The notes under the pieces were generated by a model that saw nothing but the letters and a program-made list of their open reading frames with translations, did not search any database and was not told the DNA's origin. Shown in pieces: positions 42,362-58,462 of a DNA stretch of 64,000 nucleotides. Origin of the DNA: Patescibacteria group bacterium (GTDB taxonomy: Bacteria; Patescibacteriota; Minisyncoccia; Portnoybacterales; UBA2143). The position numbers and the translations under genes were made by a program. Each line of letters starts with the position of its first letter. Positions within the stretch are counted from its first letter, which is position 1. The stretch is from assembly GCA_018830295.1 (NCBI GenBank), contig JAHJSM010000002.1:115131-179130 (forward strand), in the 5' to 3' direction.

Positions 42362-42408
42362 TTTTGTATTATACCAAAAAACCACCCTCTTGGCGATTCC
42401 TCCCCTAA

Positions 42409-42444
42409 GGGGACAGTCCCCGCGGCAGGGACTGTCCCCGTCAT
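42409..42444. repeat. GC-rich palindromic element with embedded ATG (minus strand ACTATGACGGGGACAGTCCC...)
   Basis: family member; encodes MTGTVPAAGTVP when read on minus strand. Confidence 0.75.
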
Positions 42445-42465
42445 AGTAAATCCCCTCCAAATCTT

Positions 42466-42699
42466 TTACTCCCCCTTATCCTCCCTAAACCTATTCCTAA
42501 GATATTCCTTTTCTAATTTCAAAGATTTGATTTTAATCTCAAATAACTCTTTTTCCTTCTTAATCTCATCATCTATTAAACTCAATCTACCCATAGTTTC
42601 TAAAAACTCATCCTGCTTCATAGGCCTTATCCCCCTCGGTCTCATTCTCTTAACCCTCTTTTGAACTTCTTTTTTATTTGTTTTTTTATTTTTTGTCAT
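42466..42699 (-). CDS. small basic coiled-coil protein, full-length member of the repeated 3'-fragment family
   Basis: 77 aa ending …IKSLKLEKEYLRNRFREDKGE as in repeat copies. Confidence 0.4.
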   Translation of the reverse strand: MTKNKKTNKKEVQKRVKRMRPRGIRPMKQDEFLETMGRLSLIDDEIKKEKELFEIKIKSLKLEKEYLRNRFREDKGE

Positions 42700-42775
42700 G
42701 GTTTTGTTTATTAATCAATTTCTTTAATTCTTCAAATTGCTTATCCCCTTTTATGGTCTTCTGTCAAAAAAATAT

Positions 42776-43327
42776 TTAATCATAACAAACACCAGGATTT
42801 CTTTCTGCCGGCGTTTTCCAATCTATCCCATATTTATCTTTTAAGATTCGTTTTTGTTCATCCCAAAACAGATGACAATATCCTAATGTCTTTCGCGTGA
42901 AAATAAGATTTCTTTCTGCTTCTTTAGCCGCCTTTTTAATAATAATTTTTATTTCTGGGTCATTTTCTTGAGGGTTATAACTCTGTAAAATTTCCATATA
43001 AAAATGCTCTGCCCATTCTTTGGCTGTTTTAAAATCAGACGCCCTTACGCTGTTTTTATAAACATCGTTATTGTATTTTAATTTATAATTTATTTTGACC
43101 CATTTATCCGCATTCACGCTCATATCTGTAATTTCCACGCCCTCAACTCGCTTTAGGCATTCCTTATCCATCCTGCCAAGATTTTCTTTCAGGACAATAT
43201 CAAACTCTCTGTAAATTTCTTCTTTAGCAAAAGGCCATTCAGCGCTAAAAATCCCCGATTGTCCATCCTCGGCAATTTCCCGCTCGCCCGCCTTAAAAAA
43301 GTTTTTAATAAATTTTACAAATTTCAT
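42776..43327 (-). CDS. hypothetical protein
   Basis: ORF only. Confidence 0.35.
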   Translation of the reverse strand: MKFVKFIKNFFKAGEREIAEDGQSGIFSAEWPFAKEEIYREFDIVLKENLGRMDKECLKRVEGVEITDMSVNADKWVKINYKLKYNNDVYKNSVRASDFKTAKEWAEHFYMEILQSYNPQENDPEIKIIIKKAAKEAERNLIFTRKTLGYCHLFWDEQKRILKDKYGIDWKTPAERNPGVCYD

Positions 43328-43415
43328 AATTACTCATCAAAAATTAAACTTTTAATATATTTATCCCAACCGCCGCCTCCGTATAGATTTTAGCGCCTTT
43401 CCTCCTTTTTCTTAA

Positions 43416-43898
43416 CTAAGGCATAAAGTCGCGAAACCATTTCCTGATTCTTTCGCTCCTAGACGGAATTATTTTCTCAATAGACGCGAAATTTTCTTTT
43501 TCGTAAATGTCAAAAACCTTAAAAGCAATTTTTTTTAAATAGTTCTTAAAATATTCTCTGTCATTCTCGCATTTCATTTTGTTAATAAGATTTGATAAAT
43601 ATTCTTTCTCCTTGCCATGCTCTGAATCACACTCCATAGAATCAAATGTTTGAAAAATAAGGGATTGAATATGATCGCTCATTGAGCCCACATACCAAGC
43701 GCCCGGAAAATATCTCCCAAATTGCATTTTATGCACTTTCATTGACCCTGCAAGCATATCTATAAAATTAAGATGTTCGCTAATGTCTTCTTTAATCTCT
43801 ATACCACACTTAGGACATTTTATCCCTTTTTTATAGGGAACAAAGATAGCCCCGCATTGAGAACACTTAAAATTAGGTTTTTTAATATGGAGAGTCAT
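43416..43898 (-). CDS. hypothetical protein with N-terminal zinc ribbon (CSQCG...CPKCG)
   Basis: two CxxC pairs. Confidence 0.35.
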   Translation of the reverse strand: MTLHIKKPNFKCSQCGAIFVPYKKGIKCPKCGIEIKEDISEHLNFIDMLAGSMKVHKMQFGRYFPGAWYVGSMSDHIQSLIFQTFDSMECDSEHGKEKEYLSNLINKMKCENDREYFKNYLKKIAFKVFDIYEKENFASIEKIIPSRSERIRKWFRDFMP

Positions 43899-43935
43899 GT
43901 TTTATAAAATACCTTCTGGCGGCATATGTTTTAAA

Positions 43936-44562
43936 TTATTTCAATCTTTTTACTATCCCCTCAAATTGCTCATCCCATTTTACGGTCGCGTGGGGACTTC
44001 TACCCAAATAAGAAGGATGATAAAATGAAATATCACGAAGCGAAGAATAATATATTTTAGACAATTCAACATTTAATTCCTTAAGATTTTTTCTGAAAAG
44101 CGTTTCAACATTACCACCCATTAAAACAACAATCTGTGGATTATAACATTCTATTTCTTCTTTTAAACATTTTCTAAAATTGTCGTTAGAATACCATTCT
44201 TCTTTAAATTTTTTAGGTTTAACCTTTGCTTTCCCTTCTCTTTTGACCATATCGGTTACATAAACTTTTCCCAAATTATGTTTCTTCAAAAAACACTGAA
44301 AACCAACATCAATAAATGTTGCGTTGTAATTCCCTAAATATCTCAAATGTTTTGATTGTGGTTTTAAAAAATAATCTGACGGCTTTTGCCCAATAAACAT
44401 TATCTTATATTTCTCCTTCTCTTCCGGTGGAATAAAATTTCCCGCCAGCCAATTGCCGCCATTTTTTTTGTTATATCTATCAAAAATCTCTTGTAATTTT
44501 TTGTCTAACATAAATTTTATCCCCAAATCCCCTACCCCACAAACCAACAACCTTCTATGCAT
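43936..44562 (-). CDS. possible uracil-DNA glycosylase superfamily protein
   Basis: IMFIGQKPS near N-terminus and FYHPSYLGRSP near C-terminus resemble UDG family 4/5 motifs; weak. Confidence 0.3.
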   Translation of the reverse strand: MHRRLLVCGVGDLGIKFMLDKKLQEIFDRYNKKNGGNWLAGNFIPPEEKEKYKIMFIGQKPSDYFLKPQSKHLRYLGNYNATFIDVGFQCFLKKHNLGKVYVTDMVKREGKAKVKPKKFKEEWYSNDNFRKCLKEEIECYNPQIVVLMGGNVETLFRKNLKELNVELSKIYYSSLRDISFYHPSYLGRSPHATVKWDEQFEGIVKRLK

Positions 44563-44700
44563 CCCTCTATCGGAAATATTATTTCTTCATCCAATTCTTC
44601 CAAAAACTTATCAAAACTTTCTCCCGACAATAGGAACGAACCCCAAAATAGAATCAAAACCGAGCAAAACACAACCAACAAAGACAAGGCGGCTATTCTT

Positions 44701-44991
44701 CTAATCGCTCCCAATGTTTGTTTGATTTTTTCTTTCATATTCTTTTCTAATTTCTTTTTCAAATTCATCTTTATCTTCATAATCAAGATTTACTTTAAGT
44801 TCAAATATTTTATACACAAACAAAATAATCCCAATTATCCCAGATAAATCTATTAAAAAATTTAAACTTATATTGTCCGTATAATGGAAGTTTCCGATCA
44901 GATTTAAGCGAGAAAAAGTAAATAAACCAAAAATAATTCCCCAAACCACAAATAAACTTTCAATAAATTTTTTAAAGTCTTTCATATTCAA
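44701..44991 (-). CDS. hypothetical small membrane protein
   Basis: two TM helices. Confidence 0.3.
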   Translation of the reverse strand: MNMKDFKKFIESLFVVWGIIFGLFTFSRLNLIGNFHYTDNISLNFLIDLSGIIGIILFVYKIFELKVNLDYEDKDEFEKEIRKEYERKNQTNIGSD

Positions 44992-45071
44992 ATTTCTTTT
45001 AAATCTTTTATTTATTCTACCAAAAAGGTTCCTCTCTTAGGGACAGTCCCTGCCATAGTTTTGTTTTTTAA

Positions 45072-46880
45072 TTAATAAACTGTCACTTTTTGGGTGCATT
45101 GATTATCATAATAATATTCATAATCCAAACCGCTAAAAAAATACCCGGGATAATAAGTCGCCTTAACACACCAAGACACCACTTTTTGAGTACAACTACT
45201 ATCCCAATAATTATCATAACCATCCCAATATCTGTCCGAATAATATGTGGAAAATCTGCACACTTTTGCCGTTTGAGAACATTGAGAATCATAATAATAT
45301 TCACCCCCGCTAATAAAATATCCCGAAGGGCTTGTAGATTTAGAACATCCCCTTACCATCAATTGAGAACAACTACTATCCCAATAAAAATCTGTTCCTG
45401 GGGGTTTAACATAGTATTGTTGAAAAGATAAACAGTAAATCTGATTATTGCATTGACTATCCGTATAAAAATTGACACCATCAGAATAGGCAGAAAAATC
45501 AGAAGAATATTCGCAAGGTTTTTCATATTGGGGATAAACATCAATAGTTTTGCCAGAAGGAATTCTTATTATAGTTGCGCGAGTATTGCGATAACTGTCA
45601 GGAATTTCGCCTCCAACAAAATCTTTGTTCGTGGTTTCAATATAATAATAACATCTACCATCAACTTCATAATATGTCCCCGAAACATCACAATTCATAT
45701 AGACACCCACCGCCATATGCCCTGGCAACAAAATAAGAACAGAACCATATCCCATTGCGTCAATAATAGAAGCTGTTAAATAACTGGTATCTTCGCAATC
45801 TCCATTTTTTTCAAAAAATGTCTCAATGGGATATTTAGGATATTCATCATAACCGGTAAAAATATCTTTTACATACGGCAAGTTTTGCACAAAAGATACG
45901 GCCAACCAAACCTCACTGATATTGCTCTTATCATTAGCGCCTTTTGAAATTTTCTCACTTATCTTTTTGATAAAGGGATCATCACTGGTAATATATTCTA
46001 AACTTTCAGGAGAGCTTCTTGGCTTTGCTTTATAATAATCATACCAATCTTCTTGAATTGACTCTATCCAATTCCAATCATAACCACCATAGTTCCAAGT
46101 GAATGTTTGAGGCATATTCCGCCCTCCGCCCGCAGGATGGGTGTCTTTATTGTCAACTATCCCATCACCATCAGAATCCGAATTTAAATCAGAGGTTCCT
46201 AATTTTAACTCTTCTCTGTATGTTAAACTGTCGCCATCTATGTCGGCATTCATTCTTTCTTCTTCAGCTTCGTTTTCTGATAATTCTTGTTCTTTTAATT
46301 TTCTCTCAAACTCTTCCTGTTTTGCTTTTACTTCGGCTCGACTCCTTTTAATTGCTTCCTGCCGAGTTTTTTCTTCTGCCTCATCTTTTGCTACTTCAGC
46401 TTCTCTTTTTGCCACTTCTGCTTCATCTCTTTTAGTAGTTTCTTCTTGAGCCACTTTATTCGCTCTCCCTTCTTTAATCTTACTTAAATCGGCTTCTTGG
46501 CTCAATTCTTCCATCTTAAAATTCTTCTCCCAAGAAATTTTATAAATTAAATTAGAAATATTATTGAAAACGGGCTTATCGGATAAATAACCAGCGAATT
46601 CTTTGCCAAGAGCGTAATCATAGAAAATAAAATTTAAAGCAACAACCCCGACAATAGACCAAATAACTATTTCTTTGGGAATATTCTTTTTAAATAATAA
46701 AAAAGACGCAGTTAAACTGCGCTTCCAATTAAACACTATCCCCTCTAAAACTTTTTTCTGTTTTTCGAGATATTTTTTCATGATAATTGATATCAACTCT
46801 ATTTTACATTTGGCTATTCTTGCTCTAAAAAATAAAGCCCGCTTTGAAAGCGGGCAAAAAAATATTTTCAATTTTACCAA
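45072..46880 (-). CDS. large surface protein: N-terminal TM, Glu/Ala/Lys coiled coil, Asp-rich Ca-binding-like repeats, transglutaminase-like core, C-terminal Cys-rich about 35-aa repeats
   Basis: NGDCEDTSYLTASIIDAMGYGSVLILLPGHMAVGV papain-fold core; repeated YYDSQC/YWDSSC modules. Confidence 0.5.
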   Translation of the reverse strand: MVKLKIFFCPLSKRALFFRARIAKCKIELISIIMKKYLEKQKKVLEGIVFNWKRSLTASFLLFKKNIPKEIVIWSIVGVVALNFIFYDYALGKEFAGYLSDKPVFNNISNLIYKISWEKNFKMEELSQEADLSKIKEGRANKVAQEETTKRDEAEVAKREAEVAKDEAEEKTRQEAIKRSRAEVKAKQEEFERKLKEQELSENEAEEERMNADIDGDSLTYREELKLGTSDLNSDSDGDGIVDNKDTHPAGGGRNMPQTFTWNYGGYDWNWIESIQEDWYDYYKAKPRSSPESLEYITSDDPFIKKISEKISKGANDKSNISEVWLAVSFVQNLPYVKDIFTGYDEYPKYPIETFFEKNGDCEDTSYLTASIIDAMGYGSVLILLPGHMAVGVYMNCDVSGTYYEVDGRCYYYIETTNKDFVGGEIPDSYRNTRATIIRIPSGKTIDVYPQYEKPCEYSSDFSAYSDGVNFYTDSQCNNQIYCLSFQQYYVKPPGTDFYWDSSCSQLMVRGCSKSTSPSGYFISGGEYYYDSQCSQTAKVCRFSTYYSDRYWDGYDNYWDSSCTQKVVSWCVKATYYPGYFFSGLDYEYYYDNQCTQKVTVY

Positions 46881-47218
46881 CCATATAAGCTTTTTCTATT
46901 GTTCCAAGTATATCCGTCCGAATAAGTCTTAAAATGACCCTGAACATATGTCCCCGTGCTTGGTTTATAGTAACTACTTTGCCATTTTAGCCCGCTGTTG
47001 TATGAAGGGTAACTTCTTGTAGAGTAAGAATTGCTATAAGAGGGAGTATAACTGTTATAACTTGAGTATGAAGGCGAACTCCGATAATAACTGCTGACAT
47101 ATGTCCCGTTGCTCTTATAATATCCGCTAACCCACCCGGCATGAGCAGGTGTAGAAAATAAAAATCCCAAGATCATAAAAAAGGCTACCGCTAACGCAAA
47201 TGATAATAATTTTTTCAT
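46874..47218 (-). CDS. secreted Ser/Tyr-rich low-complexity protein
   Basis: signal peptide then SY-rich repeats; TTGACA-N17-TAGCAT promoter upstream. Confidence 0.4.
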   Translation of the reverse strand: MKKLLSFALAVAFFMILGFLFSTPAHAGWVSGYYKSNGTYVSSYYRSSPSYSSYNSYTPSYSNSYSTRSYPSYNSGLKWQSSYYKPSTGTYVQGHFKTYSDGYTWNNRKSLYGW

Positions 47219-47307
47219 AAAGTTATAATTTACTTTTTACAATTTAATGCTAACAAAAACAATAATCTTTGTCAAAGCGAAAAAGATTCCTGACGGCTTT
47301 TTTCCAA

Positions 47308-47342
47308 GGGAACAGTCCCCCGTCCGCGGGGGCTGCCCCCGT
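47308..47342. repeat. GC-rich palindromic element (GGGAACAGTCCCCC-GTCCGC-GGGGGCTGCCCCC)
   Basis: family member. Confidence 0.75.
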
Positions 47343-47415
47343 CATCTCTTTCTTTGAAATATTATTTTAGTTTAAAAAAAATTCCCGACATCTTCAATTA
47401 AATTTAGTTTGTTGA

Positions 47416-47847
47416 TTATTTAATTCCCAAAAGAAAATAAAGAAGATAATTATATCCCGAATGGATAGCGATAGCCGTTAGAAGTCCTAAAACAGGTTTC
47501 TTTTTGTTAATGAAATAACAAAGAATTATAGCCGCTATTACATGGATTAGTATTGGATAAACCGAAACAGAAATTCCTTTGTTGATATATCGGACAATGG
47601 CTTCTAACACTCCCCAGCCAAGACCAAAGAAAAAACTATAAGAAACTTTTATTTTCCAAATTAAAATTGAAAAATATCTGCCTAATTCTTCATAGAGAGG
47701 AGAAAAAATGACAGGAAGCGCCAAAATAAAAAAATTATTTTCTATGCTGTTAAGTTTAATTGTAATTAAAACAAGAATTAAAAACAACAATCCGAAGCCG
47801 ATTATGCCCGCAAAAAAAGTGACTAAAATATTAATTAGGCGGATCAT
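47416..47847 (-). CDS. CPBP/Abi-like intramembrane protease-family membrane protein (start at Met 47847)
   Basis: 4-5 TM; PLYEELGRYF, ILIHVIAA, AIHSGYN motifs resemble the CPBP motif set. Confidence 0.4.
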   Translation of the reverse strand: MIRLINILVTFFAGIIGFGLLFLILVLITIKLNSIENNFFILALPVIFSPLYEELGRYFSILIWKIKVSYSFFFGLGWGVLEAIVRYINKGISVSVYPILIHVIAAIILCYFINKKKPVLGLLTAIAIHSGYNYLLYFLLGIK

Positions 47848-47850
47848 TGT

Positions 47851-47995
47851 GTCGCAGTGGTTTTTTACTGGCAAGCGGACAAACAAAAAAGGGCACCCGC
47901 TTACCGACAGCCCTTTCGGAACTGTCTACTGCCTTTCGGCAGCAACCACTGCGACATGATGATAAGACGGATGCCCGTCTTTATATCGCAGTGGA
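47851..47995 (-). ncRNA. structured 5' leader RNA (three-way junction with two GNRA hairpins, mutually exclusive closing helices) upstream of the CPBP gene
   Basis: 12-bp helix GTCGCAGTGGTT/AACCACTGCGAC; hairpins CUGCC-GAAA-GGCAG and GACAGUUCC-GAAA-GGGCUGUC (minus strand); third copy of TCGCAGTGG at 47987 allows alternative pairing. Confidence 0.45.
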
Positions 47996-48149
47996 TTTTT
48001 TACCATACCTTATAGACCAAACTATAAGGGTTAGGCAATCAAATTGTTATTTGTAGATTAGCATAAATCAGAAATTTTTGGAAGCATGCGAAAAGATTAA
48101 ATTAATTTGAAAAAGGTCATCAGGAACTTTTTTATCGTTAAAGCGGAAA

Positions 48150-48449
48150 TTATCCAATAAGTTTCTGAATGTCTTCTTGGCTAAACTCTTTTTTGTAATC
48201 AATTAATTTGGGATGACTAATGCTTCGCAATTCCGCGTCGTAGGTTGCCATGATGCTCCTTGCTCTTTTTTGGTAAACCATCCAGTTCCTCTGCGAGGCA
48301 AATTCATCAAACTTATTTAAGCCATCAAATCCATCGCCAAATTTGGCGAAGGCTATAAAAAAATCGAGATTTTCTGTAAAATCATATTTATCAATCCTGT
48401 CTTTTATCCAATTTGAAAAATCCCTGCCAACGCCGAGCCATTGATACAA
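48150..48449 (-). CDS. AntA/AntB-like antirepressor domain protein (phage-type)
   Basis: WLGVGRDFSNWIKDRIDKYDFTENLDF matches the AntA-domain pattern. Confidence 0.5.
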   Translation of the reverse strand: MYQWLGVGRDFSNWIKDRIDKYDFTENLDFFIAFAKFGDGFDGLNKFDEFASQRNWMVYQKRARSIMATYDAELRSISHPKLIDYKKEFSQEDIQKLIG

Positions 48450-48589
48450 TTCTCTGGCGTTAACAAATTTTTTTTCTCGCCATTAAAATCTTTTTGAATT
48501 ACTTTGATATTTATAAGGTCGTTCATTGTTTTGAATTATTTTTTTACATTATATCAAAAAACCGCCCAAAAGGCGATTTTTATATTTCC

Positions 48590-48750
48590 TAAAAAAGGTC
48601 AGGCCTTTCGAGTAGAGACATTTCTTAAGGTCTCGCTCAGAAGGTCTGACCTTTTTTCACCCCCTGTATTTCTCCCCAAACCCCCTCTAAATCTTTTATT
48701 CCCCCTTATCCTCCCTAAACCTATTCTTAAGATATTCCTTCTCTAATGCG
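48590..48750 (-). repeat. about 170 bp repeat copy 2 (3' ORF fragment plus terminator), interrupted by GC-rich palindrome at 48752-48790
   Basis: near-identical to 38815-38995. Confidence 0.7.
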
Positions 48751-48939
48751 CGCGCCCGAAGCCTGGCTTCGGGAGTGGGCTTCGAGAGTAAAAATATTTT
48801 GCATTTTATAATTTTATTTTCAAATCCCCTCCAAATCTTTTATTTATTTCCTAAAAAGGCTCCTGACGACTTTCTCTGATATTTCTCCACAAAAATAAGG
48901 ACAGAAGTTTATTTTCTGTCCTTAAATGATTGAATTTGT

Positions 48940-49380
48940 TCAAATCGTAATATCAGTCACATCGCCGTAAAGCAATAACAAATCTTTTGGATTGAATTTC
49001 ATCCCAGTAAATTCATCGCCACCTGCTCCTATAACATAAGGTTTTTCCATTAAATTAGCATCAATCACAACCTTGCACTTGTCAAAAAACGCGTATGGCG
49101 GAAGTCCTCCAATTTTAAAACCCGTTAGTTTTTCCACTTCTTCTGGTTTCGCGAAAGAAATTTTTGAGACATCAAAATATTTCTTTATCTTTTTAGTATC
49201 AATTTTTTTATCACCGCTAATTATTGCTGCCAAAAATTGATTTCCAGATTTTAATAAAATACTTTTAATTATAGAGGATGACTTTTCGGAAAGCGCCAAA
49301 GCGGCATTTTCGGTTTGAGCGCCGCTTTTTTTATGTCTTAATATTTTACATTTAGATTTGAATTTTTCTATATTGTTCAT
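48940..49380 (-). CDS. YbaK/ProX-like aminoacyl-tRNA deacylase-domain protein
   Basis: ILLKSGNQFLAAIISGDKKIDTKKIKK...PEEVEKLTGFKIGGLPPYAF pattern of the YbaK editing domain. Confidence 0.5.
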   Translation of the reverse strand: MNNIEKFKSKCKILRHKKSGAQTENAALALSEKSSSIIKSILLKSGNQFLAAIISGDKKIDTKKIKKYFDVSKISFAKPEEVEKLTGFKIGGLPPYAFFDKCKVVIDANLMEKPYVIGAGGDEFTGMKFNPKDLLLLYGDVTDITI

Positions 49381-49402
49381 AATACGCCCCTGTCGCGTTA
49401 AT

Positions 49403-49948
49403 TTACTTCTGATTATACCAACAAGTCGGATCGCTGTTAAGATAATCGCCTGTGTGATGCAATGCTGTCCCTCTACAACCATAGCATATTTGGCTATGTT
49501 TGCATATTTTACATTGCCCTTTTATCATATCCCGAATATTTCGTACATTCTGGAAAATAGATGAACCCTTGATAATTTCAGCAATCTTTTCTCTCGAAAT
49601 TATTCGCACTTGAACTTTTTGTTCTCCTAAAATTACAGATTTTACTAAACGGTGAAGACCATCAAGAATCAACCATCTTCCTTTATTCTTCATAATATCA
49701 ATAGGATGAGATAAATCAGCTTTCATTGTTCTTTTGTATTCTATTTTATATTTTTCAGGATGATTAATTACATCTTTTGGCTTTAATATATACCAAATAT
49801 TATTCTCATTCCAAAATGGAATATCAAAATGCCATTCCAACTCTTTAATATCCATTCGAGCAATAGGCACATCAAGCGCCCAAACCCTTCTTTCATCCCA
49901 ATCAAAATCAAAACCAACTTCTTCTATAATTTTTGGTATTTTTTCCAT
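49403..49948 (-). CDS. ParB/Srx-like nuclease domain protein with C-terminal Cys-rich tail
   Basis: WLILDGLHRL (DGxHR) motif; C-terminal CKICKH...CYGC. Confidence 0.45.
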   Translation of the reverse strand: MEKIPKIIEEVGFDFDWDERRVWALDVPIARMDIKELEWHFDIPFWNENNIWYILKPKDVINHPEKYKIEYKRTMKADLSHPIDIMKNKGRWLILDGLHRLVKSVILGEQKVQVRIISREKIAEIIKGSSIFQNVRNIRDMIKGQCKICKHSQICYGCRGTALHHTGDYLNSDPTCWYNQK

Positions 49949-50182
49949 ATCTCCAATCCCCCTCCAAATCTTTTATTTATTTTCTTAAAAGATTCCTGAC
50001 TATTTATATTATTATTTACAAGATTAAAAGATAATATAGCATATTATATTATTATTTATAACTCCCCCTCAAACGCCTTTTTCGGAACCGATTTTTTCAA
50101 TTTTTTTTTATTCCCCCTTATCCTCCTTAAACCTATTCTTAAGATATTCCTTCTCTAATTTCAAAGATTTTATTTCTATTTT

Positions 50183-50740
50183 TTATATATTTTTGGCTTT
50201 ATTCAATATATTACCGATCATCCAATACTTAAAACAACCAATATTCAAATAATCATATTTTTCCGAATTAAATAAATCAGAATAACCATTCTTTTTTATA
50301 TATTTACCAAAATCATCAAATGTTTTTTTATCATCATTAGATAAATTATCTCTTATAATATAATAATGTGGCACTTGCGGCATTGTTTTTGCAAATGTCC
50401 AAGCGCATCGATCTATAAAGTTTTCAATATATCTGATATATTCTTTAACTGATTTTGCCACCGTCTTTTCGTTTATGTTCCTTTCTTTACAATATGACAT
50501 TTTAAACCAATCTAATAATTTTTTATTACCGCGACTTGAATTACAACTTCCACAACAAATAACTACAGTAGAAGAATTATTCCAAGGAGGTAAATAGTTT
50601 AAATGTTCTATTGTTGCCCAATCCTTTCGACAACTATCATTACTGGGTTTAACCATTCTTTTATGACAATAAACACAAGTTTTGTCTCTTGATTTAATTT
50701 TATCTAATTCTGCATCTGGTATTCCGTATTTATTTTTCAT
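50183..50740 (-). CDS. HNH endonuclease
   Basis: CVYCHKRM...EHLNYLPPWNN...CCGSCNSSRGNK H-N-H zinc-finger motif. Confidence 0.6.
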   Translation of the reverse strand: MKNKYGIPDAELDKIKSRDKTCVYCHKRMVKPSNDSCRKDWATIEHLNYLPPWNNSSTVVICCGSCNSSRGNKKLLDWFKMSYCKERNINEKTVAKSVKEYIRYIENFIDRCAWTFAKTMPQVPHYYIIRDNLSNDDKKTFDDFGKYIKKNGYSDLFNSEKYDYLNIGCFKYWMIGNILNKAKNI

Positions 50741-50771
50741 AAATTATTTAAAATTCCTTTCAAATCTTTTT

Positions 50772-50816
50772 TTATCCCCAAGGGGACAGTCCCTGCGGCG
50801 GGGACTGTCCCCGTCA
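50772..50816. repeat. GC-rich palindromic element with embedded ATG (same MTGTVPAAGTVP reading)
   Basis: family member. Confidence 0.75.
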
Positions 50817-50863
50817 TAGTTCTGGTCGGCTTTCGGATAGCCGAATGGGTTTTTATTTATTCC

Positions 50864-51826
50864 CTAAAAAGATTCTTGATACCTTTCCTTTCGTCCTTGC
50901 CGATTAAGAACATTGACTATTTCTAGTATTTTACCAAACTGCTCTTCTTCATCCGAGTAGCAATAATTTAAAGAATATTCTGGTCTAATAAAATTATATT
51001 CAAGAACTTCTTTGTCGTTTAATCTTTTTCTCCTTAGATTTTTACCAGAAATAGGATAAACTGCTTCAATTAATACTTCGGGTGTTATTGGAAAATAATG
51101 TTTTCTCTCTAAAAAACTTACTCCATAAAAACTCTTTTTTTCTGGAAACCACTCAATTACTGGAGTGTCAGAAGTTATGAACCTGTATTTTCCTGTAACG
51201 ATGTAAACTCGCCAATTTTTGGCATAAATTAAATTAGCAAATCCCTCAACATCTTCAAAAAAATGTAGATGTTGAGCATTATTAAAGGTTAAACTATATT
51301 TTCCATCAATTATCATTTTTCTCATCTTCTTAATCTCTTTATCGCTTAAATTAATATTTTGTTTTTTAGCTAATTCTTTTGCCTTTTTAATGTAAATATC
51401 CTTATGCCCAGCATTTAAACCGTATAATTTCTTGGTCATATCTTCACTCATTCTATTCATTTGCTGTCTAAAATAATCGGTACGAATCCACATAATACTC
51501 ATTAAATAAGAGATATCATAACGTATATTATTACTAATATACTTATTGTCTTTTACTTGTTTACAAAAATAAGCAATAGCATTTACTGCTTTGTCTTCAA
51601 TGTTTTGCAAATAATCCTCTACTGCCTGACTCACATCATCTTGCTCTCCTGTTTTAACTCCATAAAAAAATTTCTCATAACAAACGCCACTATATGCTCT
51701 TTTTCTGCCTATCTTTTTATTTCTAATATCTAAAACAGACAATTTGCCATTATTGTCTGCAAACTGTTTTAAATAAAAACGAGGAACATAGTGCTGTTTT
51801 TTTGTAATCTGTTGTCTGTCTGGCAT
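50864..51826 (-). CDS. DUF4238 family protein
   Basis: N-terminal HYVPRFYLKQF signature. Confidence 0.55.
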   Translation of the reverse strand: MPDRQQITKKQHYVPRFYLKQFADNNGKLSVLDIRNKKIGRKRAYSGVCYEKFFYGVKTGEQDDVSQAVEDYLQNIEDKAVNAIAYFCKQVKDNKYISNNIRYDISYLMSIMWIRTDYFRQQMNRMSEDMTKKLYGLNAGHKDIYIKKAKELAKKQNINLSDKEIKKMRKMIIDGKYSLTFNNAQHLHFFEDVEGFANLIYAKNWRVYIVTGKYRFITSDTPVIEWFPEKKSFYGVSFLERKHYFPITPEVLIEAVYPISGKNLRRKRLNDKEVLEYNFIRPEYSLNYCYSDEEEQFGKILEIVNVLNRQGRKERYQESF

Positions 51827-51968
51827 ATACGACTTATTATGATTTTAATTTTTTATTTGTGTGTAAAAAGGCACCAAAGACAGATTAATTTTTTGTAATC
51901 CTCTTTTATTTTTAAAAAAGTTCCTGACGGCTTTTTACCTATTATATATGTCGCTCTAAAAAAATTTG

Positions 51969-52433
51969 CTAAAATTCTTTGTCAAATTGATTTTCCTTAC
52001 AATTAGTATACTCTCTATAAAAATAAGAGTATAATCCTGGAAAATCTTTGTTATATTCAGGTTTTAGCTCTTCACAATCAGTATCCTTCCATTCGCCCTT
52101 TGACGCTTTGTAGGTAATTCTACAAACATCATCTTTCTCAATATAGTTTTGGTGTAATACATTATTATAAGCCTCTCTTTCTTTTTCATATATTTCATAA
52201 CAATCTTTTTTTCTTTTAGCTATATACTCTTTATGTTCTTGTTCTGCCTTCACCTCTGATTCTTCCCTTTCTAATTCTAGCTCCTTCCTTTTTTCCTCTA
52301 ATTCTAATCTTTGTTGTCTTTCAATGGATTGTTGTTTATTATGCTGAACCCACACAAAACTTCCGCCTATTATCATTGCGGAAACTATAATTACAGCGGG
52401 ATAAACAAATTTATTTATATTTTTTATCTTCAT
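51969..52433 (-). CDS. hypothetical secreted coiled-coil protein
   Basis: signal/TM then charged repeats. Confidence 0.35.
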   Translation of the reverse strand: MKIKNINKFVYPAVIIVSAMIIGGSFVWVQHNKQQSIERQQRLELEEKRKELELEREESEVKAEQEHKEYIAKRKKDCYEIYEKEREAYNNVLHQNYIEKDDVCRITYKASKGEWKDTDCEELKPEYNKDFPGLYSYFYREYTNCKENQFDKEF

Positions 52434-52445
52434 ATTTAATTTTAA

Positions 52446-53825
52446 TCAAACAGCCACAACTTTTTCGATAATCTCGTCTATTTTATTTCTTTCTGTTTCT
52501 ATTTTTTGATTCATTTTTTCTTGTTTATCGAGTTCGGTCTTTATTTCGTCAACGATTTTTTGTTGATTTTTTAGGGGAATGTTTGGAATTTTAATATTTC
52601 CTAATGTTGTTGAATTTATTACAGGTTGACCTTTGGTTTTAACTACTTTTCTAATTTGTTTATTCCCAAAAACAGATTTCAAAAAATACATAACAAAATC
52701 ATTATTAAATCGGCTTAATCTAATAATTAAAATATTATCACTAGCAAATTTTTGAAAATCGTTTTTAATAATTCCAATTGGAATATCGGCGCTATCTAAT
52801 TTTGACCCAACACGACTAAATAAAATATCTCTAATCTTAAGGATAGCATTCTTGGAATTCGAAAATTTATAAGACATAATGCCACCATCAGAATTCAAAT
52901 CTTCAACTGAAATATAATTTCCTTCTTCTGCCACCTCTTTGTATTTCTCGGCATTACCCGCTTTTATAAAATCACTTATTTTCTTTAATTTTATAGTTTT
53001 TATTTTTTCTAAAAAATCTATATTATATTTGTGGTATTTAACTTTAAAAATTAGTAGTGGATCATTATTAATTTCACTAAACCCCGCCTCAAAAAAATTT
53101 TCTTTTTCTAATTCTTCAAATTTTTCTAAATCAAATCCAAACTCTCTCGCAAAAACTTTGTTGATAATTTTCTGAGCCGGAATAATTTGGTTTTTCATCT
53201 CTTTAATTTTTCTTTCGATTGGTTCAATTTTGACAACAATTTGGTCTTGAATATGTTTAGAAATTAAAGGTATTTTAATTTTCTTTAAATCGCTGTCCTT
53301 ATATGCAGATATTCCGATTCCTCGATAAATATGTTTATCTAAAATATTTCTTAATCTTTTTGTTCTTAAAATATACAAGATAAATTTTATATTCCATCCT
53401 TTTTTAATTTTGTAAATATAAAAGCCATTCGAAAAAACATAATTAGATAAATCTTTATTTTTAAAATATAAAGTTGGCGATTTCGCCAATCTTAAACTTG
53501 AAATTAAAATATTATCGTTTGAAGCTTTATGTTTTAATCTATTTGGATGATCTTCTGCAGTTACAGACTGATGCCCTTTAATTTCACCATCTTTATCCAA
53601 ATATGTTTGCCCCGTAGGAATTCCCTTATATTCTTCGCCTTCCTCATAATTAAATAAATTATAATCGTCCACAAGAATGTCTTTTAATGAAACTAAATTT
53701 TTATTTTTTGATTCAAATAAATTCCAATTTAAAAAATTTAAAAAGATATGATATTTCTCATCATTTCTTAGGAAAGAATCTTTTCTTAATTCCTGAAAAT
53801 CAATTGTAAATTGTTTTAGCGACAT
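52446..53825 (-). CDS. restriction-modification specificity subunit (HsdS-like, two target-recognition domains)
   Basis: two TRD-plus-conserved-helix units (IKIPLISKHIQDQIVVKI... and IKIPNIPLKNQQKIVDEIKTEL...). Confidence 0.65.
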   Translation of the reverse strand: MSLKQFTIDFQELRKDSFLRNDEKYHIFLNFLNWNLFESKNKNLVSLKDILVDDYNLFNYEEGEEYKGIPTGQTYLDKDGEIKGHQSVTAEDHPNRLKHKASNDNILISSLRLAKSPTLYFKNKDLSNYVFSNGFYIYKIKKGWNIKFILYILRTKRLRNILDKHIYRGIGISAYKDSDLKKIKIPLISKHIQDQIVVKIEPIERKIKEMKNQIIPAQKIINKVFAREFGFDLEKFEELEKENFFEAGFSEINNDPLLIFKVKYHKYNIDFLEKIKTIKLKKISDFIKAGNAEKYKEVAEEGNYISVEDLNSDGGIMSYKFSNSKNAILKIRDILFSRVGSKLDSADIPIGIIKNDFQKFASDNILIIRLSRFNNDFVMYFLKSVFGNKQIRKVVKTKGQPVINSTTLGNIKIPNIPLKNQQKIVDEIKTELDKQEKMNQKIETERNKIDEIIEKVVAV

Positions 53826-53830
53826 AAAGA

Positions 53831-54790
53831 TTAACCAATTCTTGTTTGATTTGGATTAAAATTTTCATCTTCGTTTATCCAGTCAATCTTAATTTTATCA
53901 ACTTTCCTTTCCCAGTCTCTTGTAGCTTTTCCAGAAATACAAACATTTTTAGTATTTTCAGGCTTTAGATAATCTAATATCTCAGATATTTTTTCTTTAT
54001 CTACGATACAAAGTATTTTTCTTTTGCCAATATCATCCTGCCTCCTTCTTGCTTGAAAAGCAAAATGATATTTATGTGCAAGCCCATAAAAATCGACAAA
54101 TTGACCTATAATCTTTATCTCTTCCGCATTTTCTTCGTCAAAAGGTTCTCGGATTCTTTCGTCAATTGAAAAAGTATCATAATCATCAAAATATTTCTTT
54201 TCGCTAAATCGTATTTTGGCAACTTCATTTTCTACATTATTCTGTTTGTATCCAATTTTCATTTCTTCTTCTTTTCCTTTTTCTAACTGAACAATACCAG
54301 AAATATAAGGGGCTAACTTTTTATAATTTTCCCAGTATTTTTCTAGTATAGTTTTTTCCTCGCCTTTATGATTTTTTAAAATTACAAATATTTTACCTTT
54401 ATTAATTTTTCTTTTTCCTTCTATTATGTTTTTACCTTTAGAAAAAATCTTGAGAGCAAATTGTTCTCCAAGTGTTCCAAAAAACTTTTTACCAAATTCA
54501 CCAACTCCTATAGCTTTTAATCCCAACCCTATTAAGGCTATATTAACTGGCAGTGAGGTAGCCGCATTAACTAATAAAAAAATTAATTCTGAACAATTTT
54601 TATTTACACTTGATATCTTTAAAACAAACTGATCGTTCTTGTCTAATTTCAAAACTTCTTTTTGATATTTTTTAAAAACTTTATCTAAAGCCACCAAACT
54701 TCTTCCCGCTTTAGCAATATCAACACTTCCATCCTCTAAAAATGGACCGAAATACTTAATATAACCAATAAATTCTTCTTGACTAGACAT
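53831..54790 (-). CDS. hypothetical protein embedded in the R-M locus
   Basis: ORF only; sits between S and R-M genes. Confidence 0.35.
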   Translation of the reverse strand: MSSQEEFIGYIKYFGPFLEDGSVDIAKAGRSLVALDKVFKKYQKEVLKLDKNDQFVLKISSVNKNCSELIFLLVNAATSLPVNIALIGLGLKAIGVGEFGKKFFGTLGEQFALKIFSKGKNIIEGKRKINKGKIFVILKNHKGEEKTILEKYWENYKKLAPYISGIVQLEKGKEEEMKIGYKQNNVENEVAKIRFSEKKYFDDYDTFSIDERIREPFDEENAEEIKIIGQFVDFYGLAHKYHFAFQARRRQDDIGKRKILCIVDKEKISEILDYLKPENTKNVCISGKATRDWERKVDKIKIDWINEDENFNPNQTRIG

Positions 54791-54802
54791 AAATTATTAA
54801 AT

Positions 54803-57172
54803 TTACTCCCACTCAATATTCCTCATATAATCCAAAGCTGTTTTTTCTATATTATCATCAACCAAGATCTCCCCCTTATTATTTGTCCTGAAAAGTTCGT
54901 TTGGCATTGGTTTTTCGCCTCTTTTTGTTCTTTTGTATCCTACATTTTCTACTTCTGCCATAAAAATTTTGTAATTCAATTCTTTGGCAACCTCGCCGAA
55001 TACCCACCACGAATTTACAAATCCAAAAGTATCTTTTGTATCATTATTGTATTTACACAAATCCCCTAATTCGTTTTGATATTTTTCCACCAATTCTTTA
55101 ACGGAAAGTTTTTTATCGTCTTGTTCAAAATAATCTTTTAGCATTCTTGTTAAAATTGTTTTTTCTTCCGTCTCTTTCAGATTTTTAATAGAGGGCAATT
55201 TTTTTCTGTCTTTTCCTTCAAGATATACTGCCGTTAAATTTTCGCATCTGGTTTTTAGATTATTCCATTCGTTAGAGTATTGACTCCAAAGATTATTCCA
55301 TTCTTCAATTTCCGATTTTGTTTTCTTTTGCGCGAAAAGCAAACTGGTTTTTGTTGAAGTGAACGGCTCAAAAGCCAACTGGGGCAAAGAAACAACCGCT
55401 TTAACTTTAAAATATTTGTAAATAAACAAGCGGATATATTTATTCTCTGTCGTGTCAAAAACGCTTTCCGGCAAAACAGCGCCAAAGCGACCATTCGGTT
55501 TTAGCAATTGATACCATCTTTCTATGAAAAGATTTTCTGAATTCTTTTTTTCACCAAAAGCAAACCCCTCCTTAACATTCTTTTGAGTATCATCATCCAA
55601 ATTAACGCTAAAGGGCGGATTCGTAATAATCACATCAAATTGTTCGTTAATTTCTTTGTTAAAATAAGTTTTATCTGTCTTTGATTTTTCTAATTTATTA
55701 GAATAAAAAGAAAAAGGGAGAAGACCGTCTTTTACATAAATATTAGCTGAACCGTCGCCGTGTAAAATCATATTAACCTTGGCGGCTGTACCTAAATTAA
55801 AATTAATGTCAGTTCCATAAATAAACTCCTCCGCCCATTTATTTTCAAGATTGTCGGGATAAAACCAATTTTGTATTTTATTTTCTACATTTTGGGAAGT
55901 TTCAATTTTGCTTCTAAATCTTCTTTTAACATTTTCGGTAATAAACTTCATATATTCAATCAAAAAAGTTCCGCTGCCCGCGCTTGGGTCTATTAAATAA
56001 GGAATTTCCAAATCTTTATTAATTCTATCTATCGCAAGTTTATCAAGTTGTAGTCCCCAAAGCAGAAATCTTACGATGTTGATGTGAGTAAAAAATTGAC
56101 CTTTCGTCTGTTTGAATCCTTCTCTGATAATCCCTTCAAAAAAATCTCCCAAAATATCTTTTCCATCAAAACTATTTTTCCCATCTACGAAAGAATAGCC
56201 TTCTAATTGGGTTATTGTATATTTAAGTTTGGCAAGAGAAAACTTATTTTCGTCAATGACAAAAGATTTTTTTAATTTTGTTTTATCTGTGATATTTAGC
56301 CGTTGCTTTAATGCCCTTTTATATAGTTCGTTTATTCTTTCAAAAAGTTGTTCGTTGGATTCAAAACTTTCTCCGTCCTTAAAGGAAAAAATTTGAAAAT
56401 CATATTTCTCGTCTTTCTTCTTCTCGCTCTCATCTTGAATTTTTGCCAAGATAATATTTACCAGCGAAGAAAAAATATCATTATCATCCATTCCTCCGCC
56501 GCCCCATAAAACATTGTGTAGATTTTTCCTAAGACCATCTAGCTGCTGATGGGTAAAACTTGCTTCTAAATCTTTTTTACCACCTTTTATGTATGGTTCT
56601 TTTTGCGCTTTTCCGTATCTTTCGGGTAGTTCATTAGCAAAATCCCTCGCTTCTTTCCATAAACTAAAAGAAGAAAATTTTTCATAATCAATAATAATAC
56701 ATTTGTCCTTTATCTCGTTTTCTACTATTTCAACTGTATATAAAACAAGATATTTAACTTTCTTGCCCTGCCCTTGCTCCTGCGAAGCAAGATTGAAAAG
56801 TTGTTTTTCTATAGTCTCGTCTTTGTCTTTTTCGTAATCCTGCGGACTTTTAAGTTCTATGTATAAAAAAGCGTTTCCGTCGTTATCTCGCACAATTATA
56901 TCTATCCTCGGTTTATTGACTTTTGGTCTGCCGATATCATATTCTTTTTCAATCTCAATATTTTTAGGATTATAACCTAATTCGTTGACTAATTTTGCGA
57001 GGATATACGCCCTAACAATTTCTTCATCTCCAGCTATTTTGTTTATTTTCCTATGCTGTATAATTGGTGCGTCGTATTTTATTTTGGACTGATCCAAAAG
57101 AGGAAAACTCGCAATTTGAATTTTGTTGCTTTTTAGGTAGTCTATAATTGGCGTTTGAATTTCTTTATTCAT
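54803..57172 (-). CDS. fused restriction endonuclease / N6-adenine DNA methyltransferase (Type IIB BcgI-A-like or Type IIG)
   Basis: N-terminal HsdR_N-like PD-(D/E)XK (IDIIVRDNDGNAFLYIELKSP); methyltransferase motif I DPSAGSGTF and motif IV ITNPPF; 789 aa. Confidence 0.7.
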   Translation of the reverse strand: MNKEIQTPIIDYLKSNKIQIASFPLLDQSKIKYDAPIIQHRKINKIAGDEEIVRAYILAKLVNELGYNPKNIEIEKEYDIGRPKVNKPRIDIIVRDNDGNAFLYIELKSPQDYEKDKDETIEKQLFNLASQEQGQGKKVKYLVLYTVEIVENEIKDKCIIIDYEKFSSFSLWKEARDFANELPERYGKAQKEPYIKGGKKDLEASFTHQQLDGLRKNLHNVLWGGGGMDDNDIFSSLVNIILAKIQDESEKKKDEKYDFQIFSFKDGESFESNEQLFERINELYKRALKQRLNITDKTKLKKSFVIDENKFSLAKLKYTITQLEGYSFVDGKNSFDGKDILGDFFEGIIREGFKQTKGQFFTHINIVRFLLWGLQLDKLAIDRINKDLEIPYLIDPSAGSGTFLIEYMKFITENVKRRFRSKIETSQNVENKIQNWFYPDNLENKWAEEFIYGTDINFNLGTAAKVNMILHGDGSANIYVKDGLLPFSFYSNKLEKSKTDKTYFNKEINEQFDVIITNPPFSVNLDDDTQKNVKEGFAFGEKKNSENLFIERWYQLLKPNGRFGAVLPESVFDTTENKYIRLFIYKYFKVKAVVSLPQLAFEPFTSTKTSLLFAQKKTKSEIEEWNNLWSQYSNEWNNLKTRCENLTAVYLEGKDRKKLPSIKNLKETEEKTILTRMLKDYFEQDDKKLSVKELVEKYQNELGDLCKYNNDTKDTFGFVNSWWVFGEVAKELNYKIFMAEVENVGYKRTKRGEKPMPNELFRTNNKGEILVDDNIEKTALDYMRNIEWE

Positions 57173-57510
57173 AAAAGTTTTAGTTATATTTTTTTATTAT
57201 ATTTAAAGTTCCTCCCCCTCATATTACCCCAACCAAAAAAACAAATCAAACGAAAACCCGCTTGGGGGCGGGGTTATAACTCTTACCATTCGCAGACTCT
57301 TTTGTCGTTGTCTCCGTCTAAATGATGAATGTCATCGCCGGTTTTCTCTTAACGAGGTTCGACCTACGAGCGCGACCTTAAGAAATGTCGCTACTCTTAA
57401 TGTCAAACCTCTTTGCTTACCATCCTATCCCTCTCATTTTACAAACCTAACTGTCGGATATGTATCTGAACCTATACACCAAAAAACTGGCTGTTTCAAC
57501 GGAAAAATCT

Positions 57511-57541
57511 GGGGACAGTCCCCGCAGCAGGGACTGTCCCC
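57511..57541. repeat. GC-rich palindromic element GGGGACAGTCCCC-GCAGCA-GGGACTGTCCCC
   Basis: family member; about 65 bp including flanks duplicated at 59582-59646. Confidence 0.8.
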
Positions 57542-57709
57542 AGATTAAAATCAATAGCCACTTGACAAGGTTTCTATATTTGATATTCTATTATTAGGGC
57601 TGGCAATAATACCTTTTGAAGCGCTCGGGTGTTCTCTCCGCAGATGCGGAGATCATAAAGCTCGAGAGTCCGTTTCAAAAGACGCCGCTCTACAAAAGAT
57701 TCCGATAAT

Positions 57710-58412
57710 TTATCGGGATTTTTTGTTTGCCCAATAATCCTTAAAAAGTTCGTTAGACGCGATGATGCTGTTTCTAAGCATTGCGAAAAAATGCTCGCCG
57801 TTTTTTCTTTCATTGTGGTATCTAAAAAGAGCCCCGCAAATCCAATCTGCTATTTGTATATTAGGACTAGCGGAAGAATTTAACGCTTCAATTTGAATAA
57901 CCGCTTTTGCTGGCAATTTTGGCAACAAATCTAATTTTGTAATTTCATTAAATTTTGTTTGAGAAATTTTTTTCAGATGCCTTTCGTCTCGGAATACTCT
58001 GAATTCTAAGTCAGTAGTAGGCAAAAGAAGATGAAGGGTTTGAACAATAACTTCGGCATATAAATAGCCGCTATCCAAACTTTTCTTTTTTCGATATTCC
58101 AAGGGGATGTTGGACTTATTAAAAAAGGCGTAAAATACCCTGATGTCTTGTTCAGTAAAATATTCAAGCGTTTTTACGGAGGTTTTCATCTAATCCTGTG
58201 TCTGAAAACTTAACTTCTGTTTTATAGCGAAGTTTCTTTGGAAATTTTGTATGTTGCCATTTGCGAAAGGCCTTGGATGTTCTTTTGTGATTGTTTGTGA
58301 TAAATCCGCCCACGACAAAATTACGCTCTTTGTTCCCTGTAAAATTACCTGATTCATCAAGAAAGATAAACATATTCCCCCTAATTTTACCCCAACCAAC
58401 AAGACAAATCAA
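57710..58412 (-). pseudogene. DUF3800 family gene split by a frameshift (N-terminal piece 58164-58373, C-terminal piece 57710-58189)
   Basis: N-terminal FIFLDESGNF and C-terminal QIADWICGAL in separate overlapping frames; combined length about 229 aa. Confidence 0.5.
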
Positions 58413-58462
58413 TCAAAAAAACCCGCTTGGGGGGCGGGGTTAACCGAGTTTCCTAATTATAA

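Follow-up and report, generated by a model that had tools for sequence, protein, structure and literature searches.

LOOT (RF03000) is a family of structured RNAs that was catalogued by Weinberg et al. in 2017 (PMC5737381) and is included in Rfam 14 (PMC7779021), where it is presented as metagenome-based, and in Rfam 15 (PMC11701678). The Rfam entry types it as "Gene; sRNA", that is, as a small RNA (sRNA), and its model ends at the hairpin P4. The accessible part of the literature lists LOOT solely as a metagenome-derived motif and assigns it no function. Here, we describe a LOOT element on the minus strand of a 64-kb stretch of Patescibacteria DNA (the window, to the whole of which all coordinates refer), located upstream of an ATG at 47847. 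It shares with the family the P1 hairpin bearing a tetraloop receptor, the AAAA linker, the 11-bp P2, and two GNRA hairpins, and its closest relatives are found in Patescibacteria. To these the window adds a tail pseudoknot, a U-tract, a hairpin P5, and a copy of one P2 strand at the start region together with the alternative helix formed by this copy, all of which are absent from the Rfam model and from the portions of the literature that were accessible; the U-tract, P5, and the copy lie 3′ of the model. With a probability of roughly 0.6, the element could be read as a cis-acting bistable 5′ leader of a gene for a 143-aa membrane protein, which would either expose or sequester the start site of that gene.

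The window element is a member of the LOOT family. The Rfam scan placed its 5′ two-thirds (48037-47906, minus strand) in LOOT with 70.9 bits against a gathering score of 46.4 (E = 2.5e-11), covering model positions 1-121 of 121, although the original prediction had regarded the structure as not attributable to a known class. The consensus features between 48037 and 47995 are P1 with CCUAA...(G)YAUGG and then the AAAA linker, and the long P2, paired at 11/11 positions, is followed by the two GAAA-capped hairpins P3 and P4, as in the LOOT layout (Table 1). Neither CCUAA nor AUGG varies among the 97 aligned LOOT sequences, and we take CCUAA...UAUGG in P1 to be the classical 11-nt GAAA-tetraloop receptor motif. 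The 9-mer CCACUGCGA / CCACTGCGA and its complement occur at only three places in the 64 kb, every one of them inside the element. The segment 47995-47851 folds at -67.8 kcal/mol (z = -7.2 compared to shuffles) and the longer segment 48040-47848 at -84.2 kcal/mol (z = -8.4), for which 0/200 shuffles were equally stable; the minimum-energy folds of both segments use a 12-bp closing helix around a three-way junction. This helix (GUCGCAGUGGUU with AACCACUGCGAC), the GAAA hairpins at 47944-47927 and 47926-47906 (P3 and P4 of LOOT), a third stem (GGUAAGCGG with CCGCUUGCC), the copy UCCACUGCGA at 47995-47986, the AGACGG/CCGUCU hairpin, and the ATG are all located on the minus strand where the original prediction had put them, and the mutually exclusive helices that it proposed beside a start codon that lacks a Shine-Dalgarno sequence are a real, co-varying feature in a subset of LOOT RNAs. 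Its short alternative hairpin (47994-47984 with 47956-47946), in turn, is the LOOT consensus helix P2 and not an alternative, and three parts of the structure had gone unnoticed: the 5′ hairpin at 48037-48001, the long-range pairing of GGGCAUCCGUCUUAUC (47976-47961) with GGUAAGCGGGUGCCC (47905-47891), and the pairing of AUCAU (47963-47959) with AUGAU (47847-47843) over the start codon in the alternative fold.

Relatives were collected with a pattern of the invariant LOOT nucleotides, which gave 120 loci in a species-representative genome collection, 99 of them with a properly paired P2; a second set of 87 metagenome loci brings the total to about 185, with Patescibacteria as the source of nearly all. 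The loci of the genome collection come from metagenome-assembled genomes of Patescibacteria in almost every case, and a re-scan of 18 of them with Rfam placed 18/18 over the threshold (62.6-94.7 bits). P2 is constantly 11 bp long and directly follows the invariant AAAA, with 9-11/11 positions paired in all 99 loci, while its sequence is hypervariable. The longest open reading frame (ORF) covering the downstream region is on the same strand in 82/90 loci, with predicted start codons at a median of 95 nt after P2, and in 59/85 the gene upstream is transcribed divergently from the opposite strand. A TATAAT-like box starts 18-40 nt upstream of the CCUAA of P1 in 57/92 loci, compared to 15/92 in a control window, and a conserved ACAAUU lies between this -10-like box and P1. 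In the window, the corresponding ACAAUUU may be the initial transcribed sequence or the partner of UUGU in the U-tract; folding predicts a closing helix of 5′ ACAA with this UUGU, for which the alignment columns, being conserved or of low complexity, are uninformative as to covariation. The downstream proteins are diverse, 95 of them falling into 80 sequence clusters, and their Pfam matches are methylases, nucleases, and small or unknown membrane proteins. The leader position, the -10-like box, and the diversity of the downstream genes therefore argue against a metabolite riboswitch, and LOOT appears, from these comparisons, to be a general promoter-proximal leader rather than a free sRNA. The P2 5′ strand was also considered as a Shine-Dalgarno mimic, for which it shows a weak purine bias (AGG/GGA/GAG in 32% compared to 19% of random 9-mers). 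A phage origin was rejected, since a collection of 2.9 million viral contigs gave 8 pattern matches, of which one (L121) was a real LOOT.

Every LOOT locus carries a conserved tail beyond P4, typically GCUGGCGGCGAGC and then a U-tract. Covariation was assessed with RNAalifold and with a count of pairs in the named structure on the 97-sequence alignment. RNAalifold picked a long-range helix between this tail (strand X) and an apical strand of P2 (strand Y), which is a pseudoknot because it crosses P2. All 10 pairs of the X:Y helix show two-sided changes and are 94-96% paired, on a par with P3; pairing of the whole structure is 94.4%, compared to 71% after shuffling and 36-47% with the partners slid. 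In the window, the Y:X duplex has an energy of -27.3 kcal/mol against -9.7 kcal/mol for the local apical hairpin. The apical local hairpin of the Rfam model left no clean covarying diagonal in the MAFFT alignment, in which the alignment itself is possibly at fault.

The same tail also speaks for a different reading, in which LOOT would be a free-standing sRNA of ~165 nt ending at the pseudoknot and U-tract, and the start-region copy would be an antisense-like target on a separate or read-through mRNA. This agrees with the type given by Rfam, and the long-range stem of the window, which is GC-rich, 10-15 bp long, and covarying, with an A-rich stretch 5′ of Y and the nearly invariant U-tract behind it, resembles an intrinsic terminator whose "loop" is very large. 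However, a local terminator hairpin was not detected on the minus strand of the window. Moreover, the RNA continues past the U-tract because strand Z, located 3′ of it, complements X in most loci; the X:Z duplex reaches -10 kcal/mol or lower in 65% of them. The ATG follows the U-tract by only 20-30 nt in several loci and directly in 7, and this frequent spacing of 0-30 nt excludes room for a second promoter. In these 7 loci, the pseudoknot strand, which contains GGGAG, is itself the start region and would be a putative ribosome-binding site. A trans target in the vicinity was likewise rejected, since the own P2 sequence has 0.04 matches per locus elsewhere in the 8-kb loci on both strands, compared to 0.05 for the null. 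On balance, a free-standing sRNA seems unlikely to us.

The start-region copy speaks for a bistable leader. The 300 nt downstream of each LOOT were searched with the 5′ strand of its own P2, for which the P2 strands of other loci served as the null. In the genome set, identity of 10/10 was found for 10.3% of own P2 strands (null 0.01%) and of at least 9/10 for 17.5% (null 0.55%), and a duplex with the start region (-30 to +6) of -16 kcal/mol or lower was formed by 16.8% (null 0.03%); the 87 independent metagenome loci gave identity of at least 9/10 in 12.6% (null 0.57%). The energies of the duplexes between own P2 and start region are clearly bimodal, and the copy of each positive locus stops 0-7 nt short of an ATG, preceded by UAAAA(N)C, which resembles the LOOT linker. 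Differences between the copy and the P2 5′ strand keep the pairing with the shared strand, that is, the 3′ strand of P2, in 12/19 cases where 6 are expected, with 3/19 being the same change in close relatives, and in four loci (L062, L138, L146, and L203) the alternative helix has a Watson-Crick pair at a position that is mismatched in P2. Because the differences tend to keep the pairing and these four loci fit the alternative helix better, the comparison points to selection on an RNA helix and not to passive DNA duplication.

The two competing helices have similar stabilities, with means of -19.5 kcal/mol for P2 and -20.7 kcal/mol for the alternative helix. In the copy-bearing loci, the nested minimum-energy fold contains the alternative helix in 7/20 and P2 in 12/20. 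In the window, the alternative helix is the stronger one (-24.0 vs -20.4 kcal/mol) because a U-to-C difference from copy 1, the 5′ strand of P2, sits opposite a G. When the pseudoknot and tetraloop docking are ignored, the segment 48047-47830 folds to -89.3 kcal/mol with a probability of ~1 for the alternative helix; with the 3′ copy forced open, P2 re-forms at -79.6 kcal/mol, which puts the alternative fold 9.7 kcal/mol ahead in this nested model. The 3′ copy occupies the position where a Shine-Dalgarno sequence would be, with 4 nt between its end and the AUG. The window gene has no Shine-Dalgarno sequence, whereas other genes of the same island have a GGAGGGG leader. In three Saccharibacteria loci (L007, L008, and L114), the copy precedes the ATG of a short ORF, and a longer ORF starts ~70-90 nt further on; the short ORF could be a leader peptide or could serve translational coupling. 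The longer ORF in L008, L114, and L005, the last of which has a degraded copy, belongs to a shared family beginning MHGL(R/F)VE.

Collectively, we infer a leader with two folds whose exchange would control translation. In fold 1, the conserved LOOT fold, P1 with its receptor, the 11-bp P2 formed by copy 1 and the shared strand, the Y:X pseudoknot, P3, and P4 would coexist, and the start region would be single-stranded, making translation possible. In fold 2, which is nested, the shared strand would swap copy 1 for the 3′ copy over positions -15 to -4; P1 would be kept, the alternative helix would enclose P3, P4, and P5, X would pair with Z as P5, and Y would return to the local apical hairpin. 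The start region, in the window up to the AUG, would then be sequestered and translation blocked. Since Z and the 3′ copy are the last to be transcribed, fold 1 would be the first to form. Some input would presumably set the balance between the folds. It could be temperature, the kinetics of folding, a cellular factor binding fold 1, or Mg2+-dependent docking in which the P1 receptor takes up the P3 GAAA loop. Fold 1 might, in addition, act as a transcription attenuator, given the U-tract behind its pseudoknot.

Several points weigh against this bistable leader. The start-region copy is absent from ~83-87% of LOOT RNAs, and therefore switching by this helix is not the general function of the family. 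In loci without the copy, the pairing of a LOOT with its own start region (-13.1 kcal/mol) is no better than that of another locus's LOOT (-12.0 kcal/mol), and hidden start-site pairing was accordingly rejected for copy-less LOOTs, the 7 loci with the ATG directly after the U-tract excepted. Because most LOOTs show no evident sequestration, the core function of LOOT would be something on which the switch builds. Furthermore, the copy repeats the A-rich linker too, which is beyond what pairing alone explains, and the invariant nucleotides are architectural (receptor, AAAA, and GAAA), with no obvious ligand pocket. The model itself is drawn from sequence comparison and computed folds, and as the fold energies leave out the pseudoknot and tertiary contacts, the balance between the folds is not readable from them.

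Two of these points could also be explained by a constitutive structural leader without switching, a 5′ mRNA stabiliser or an insulator of portable modules, in which the copy would be a remnant of assembly at the DNA level. Inclusion of the A-rich linker in the copy and the architectural character of the invariant nucleotides fit this explanation, as do the extreme diversity of the downstream genes, the mobility of the block of promoter, LOOT, and ORF between genomic contexts, and a pair of loci, L099 and L106, which agree in P2, copy, and first codons and yet encode different proteins. Nevertheless, the substitutions in the copy are biased toward pairing with the shared strand, which in the four loci named above fits the 3′ copy better than copy 1; in addition, the copy is constantly placed over the start region, and the copy-bearing variant shows a strong link to a single class of gene. 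We consider a purely constitutive leader distinctly improbable.

The gene class in question is that of DNA methyltransferases, called by a (D/N/S)PP(F/Y/W) motif or a shared N-terminus. Such genes lie downstream of 11/31 copy-bearing LOOTs and of 0/150 others (Fisher p = 7e-10, uncorrected for kinship); Pfam confirmed a methyltransferase in 8/11 scanned, and the linked genes represent at least 5 lineages with differing P2 sequences. L099 and L106, noted alongside L032 and also L199 and L242, are identical in P2 and in the start-region copy and begin with similar codons (MSKK.xLxS), whereas their products otherwise differ, one being a type I/IIG-like restriction-modification fusion and the other an N6_N4 methylase. 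Because both the leader and the first codons are shared and the remainder differs, these may recombine as a unit. A broader and more tentative reading, to which we give well below even odds, is that LOOT represents a new class of cis-acting switch of the candidate phyla radiation, in which a receptor-docked and pseudoknotted sensor fold would respond to a cellular signal by a double strand exchange (pseudoknot against P5, and P2 against the start-region helix) and would gate the translation of genes acquired by horizontal transfer, above all those for the DNA methyltransferases of restriction-modification systems.

The window gene is not a methyltransferase. It encodes a 143-aa small membrane protein of an orphan family, which the original prediction had called a CPBP-like membrane protease; no Pfam match was obtained for it even at E <= 10, PF02517 (CPBP/CAAX protease) included, and no PDB profile match was found; the AlphaFold model, with a pLDDT (predicted local distance difference test) of 48, was too poor for a fold comparison. 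The motifs of the CPBP family are EExxxR, FxxxH, and HxxxN, located on transmembrane helices. EE, H, and HxxxN are invariant in the 7 homologues of the window protein and would be compatible with that family, but the first motif, EELG(R/K), is one residue short of EExxxR. More divergent homologues sit in operons without LOOT, so LOOT is not tied to this protein family, and a gene-family-specific leader was rejected. The N-terminal extension MFVRLPVKNHCDT of the predicted ORF is probably an ORF-calling artefact, as the original prediction had supposed, because it is unconserved in the divergent homologues, which begin at MIR. The plus-strand ORF 47708-47959, which the original prediction also took for a probable artefact, is antisense to the RNA and the gene alike.

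A further reading is a small-molecule riboswitch, in which the junction of P1, P2, and P3 with the pseudoknot would be the aptamer and the exchange of P2 and the start-region helix one of several expression platforms. The complex pseudoknotted fold, the tetraloop-receptor docking, the conserved junction nucleotides (AAAA, C-G, and U), the location in the 5′ untranslated region, and the alternative arrangements resembling expression platforms would suit such a device. Mutually exclusive structures at the start region, as in an expression platform, are present in the window and in 13-17% of LOOT members but not in the rest. However, the 95 downstream proteins in their 80 clusters have no metabolic or transport theme. 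The main text of the discovery paper (PMC5737381) does not include LOOT among the riboswitch candidates that it discusses. Given the lack of functional coherence among the downstream genes, a metabolite riboswitch is disfavoured, and we hold it to be very unlikely.

The bistable leader resembles several known devices in part. As in three-strand-exchange platforms (anti-Shine-Dalgarno/anti-anti-Shine-Dalgarno, or the trp-type 1:2 / 2:3 helices), one strand has two near-identical partners, one of which lies over the ribosome-binding region, and the exchanged helices are of similar stability. Unlike these platforms, the exchanged helix of LOOT is placed within the conserved tertiary fold rather than in a separate platform, and its genes are incoherent. 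ZTP (pfl) and other pseudoknot riboswitches similarly reuse strand X in a downstream hairpin (here P5) with a U-tract after it, whereas the U-tract of LOOT follows the pseudoknot strand itself and lies in the loop of the competing hairpin. The mRNAs of hok-type and other type I toxins share a first-made leader fold that differs from a stabler full-length fold hiding the start, and the genes under such control often encode small membrane proteins or enzymes that could do harm; LOOT differs from them in having no identified antisense RNA or 3′ processing signal and a far more elaborate conserved tertiary fold. The bridge RNA of IS110 and mobile guide RNAs are alike in being structured RNAs with a hypervariable segment that matches nearby DNA, whereas LOOT has no adjacent recombinase, and the sequence it matches is not in the flanks of an element but in the same transcript, at the start region of the neighbouring gene.

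Table 1. Features of the LOOT leader and its gene on the minus strand of the window.
Feature	Position	Strand	Basis or remark
Occurrences of the 9-mer	47994-47986; 47954-47946 (complement); 47860-47852	(-)	window-wide exact match
Promoter + LOOT leader + ORF block	47384..48094	(-)	92-96% identity over 705-711 bp in two other Patescibacteria contigs
Promoter-like extended -10 box TGcTAATCT	48055..48063	(-)	read from sequence; predicted transcript start ~48047
Conserved 5′ motif ACAAUUU, between -10 box and P1	48041..48047	(-)	A13 and A15 of window sequence >=90% conserved in alignment
P1 hairpin, CCUAA ... UAUGG	48001..48037	(-)	Rfam alignment; flanking pairs covary
A-rich linker J1/2, AAAAAU	47995..48000	(-)	AAAA invariant in LOOT family
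P2 5′ strand (copy 1), CCACUGCGAUA	47984..47994	(-)	pairs 11/11 with 47956-47946
Apical P2: local hairpin AGACGG/CCGUCU (47980-47965) or pseudoknot strand Y, GGGCAUCCGUCUUAUC (47976-47961)	47961..47980	(-)	duplex energies
Shared strand: P2 3′ strand UGUCGCAGUGG (47956-47946) or GUCGCAGUGGUU (47955-47944), pairing with the 3′ copy	47944..47956	(-)	sequence and folding
P3 hairpin, invariant GAAA loop	47927..47943	(-)	Rfam alignment; compensatory changes at all 8 pairs
P4 hairpin, GNRA (GAAA) loop; last element of Rfam model	47906..47926	(-)	Rfam alignment, pair changes
Strand X, GGUAAGCGGGUGCCC: pseudoknot 3′ strand or P5 5′ strand	47891..47905	(-)	covariation; beyond Rfam model
U-tract UUUUUUGUUU, directly 3′ of X; loop of P5	47881..47890	(-)	TTT.TG pattern nearly invariant
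Strand Z, CCGCUUGCC: P5 3′ strand, pairs with GGUAAGCGG (47905-47897)	47870..47878	(-)	window P5 = -16.0 kcal/mol
3′ copy of (AA)+P2 5′ strand, AACCACUGCGAC; pairs with 47955-47944	47851..47862	(-)	permutation tests
Downstream ORF, 143-aa small membrane protein, orphan family	47416..47847	(-)	7 homologues, all Patescibacteria or metagenomic; MIR start conserved

The block of promoter, leader, and ORF has its counterparts at 1087-1790 of L009 and 2803-3482 of L132, and the neighbouring genes differ in all three contigs. In L009, the block abuts a repeat whose window counterpart lies ~490 bp further upstream, separated from the block by an AntA-like fragment. This fragment (48150-48449, minus strand), directly upstream of the LOOT promoter, is a 99-aa ORF with only the first half of an AntA/AntB antirepressor domain and is probably a gene fragment. 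About 75 nt past the stop codon of the LOOT-led gene lies the GC-rich hairpin GCGGGGGCTGCCCCCGT (47326-47342, plus strand / 47297-47345), probably a bidirectional terminator, and it belongs to a repeat family whose members are also found beside the block in L009 and L132. The surrounding region, ~42400-60000, is a low-GC island (26-38% GC) with repeated short intergenic modules. A leader of 70-100 nt with a strong GGAGGGG ribosome-binding site is reused at 42448-42561, 48678-48747, 48815-48872, 49948-50005, and 50090-50203, and GC-rich hairpins of the form GGGGACAGTCCCC...GGGACTGTCCCC occur at 42403, 50776, 57505, and 59615. The arrangement suggests cassette shuffling via recombination between reused regulatory modules, and the short repeats flanking the block look like such leader and ribosome-binding modules and GC-rich terminator hairpins rather than the integron-like attC sites that were also considered. 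It is hardly tenable that the repeats of the element belong to mobile DNA, whether as a target-site duplication, as an attachment site, or as part of an IS110-like bridge or guide RNA, because, although they are direct repeats ~134 nt apart in a low-GC restriction-modification/defence island rich in short repeats, no recombinase or transposase was found adjoining (the neighbours being the AntA fragment, a tRNA-editing domain protein, and DUF4238, transglutaminase-like, and UDG proteins), the sequence between them is the conserved 3′ half of the RNA and not cargo, the boundaries of the 711-bp block (48094 and 47384) are off the repeats, and the viral contigs held a single real LOOT.

Two further parts of the island are recorded here. 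DUF3800-V RNA (RF02964), an orphan RNA from the same 2017 survey as LOOT, is located at 57595-57692 on the plus strand (66.9 bits vs 37.4). On the opposite strand, 18 nt from it, a 159-aa ORF (57710-58189, minus strand) matches the C-terminal part of the DUF3800 domain, in agreement with the published association. Genes at 52446-57172 on the minus strand are weakly similar to components of methylation-associated defence (MADS) and include one specificity-subunit-like protein and a 789-aa methyltransferase, with E = 4e-53 to MAD2, which is well under the curated cut-off; a LAPAL-family-like ORF lies between these two.

LOOT belongs to the many structured RNAs that are well supported and yet orphans, and its hosts are part of a huge and mostly uncultured radiation whose gene regulation is scarcely known. 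The results presented here turn this orphan into a concrete model, in which LOOT is a promoter-proximal leader with a pseudoknot beyond the catalogued fold and, in a subset, a second fold that would hide the start; the pseudoknot, the leader position, the alternative fold of the subset, and the association with methyltransferases were not found in the accessible literature on LOOT. Restriction-modification genes are normally controlled by C proteins or by autoregulation of the methylase, and the methyltransferase link of the copy-bearing subset suggests an RNA-based control of such genes. Even should the two-fold model fail, the current annotation of LOOT is corrected by the extended structure and by the leader position.

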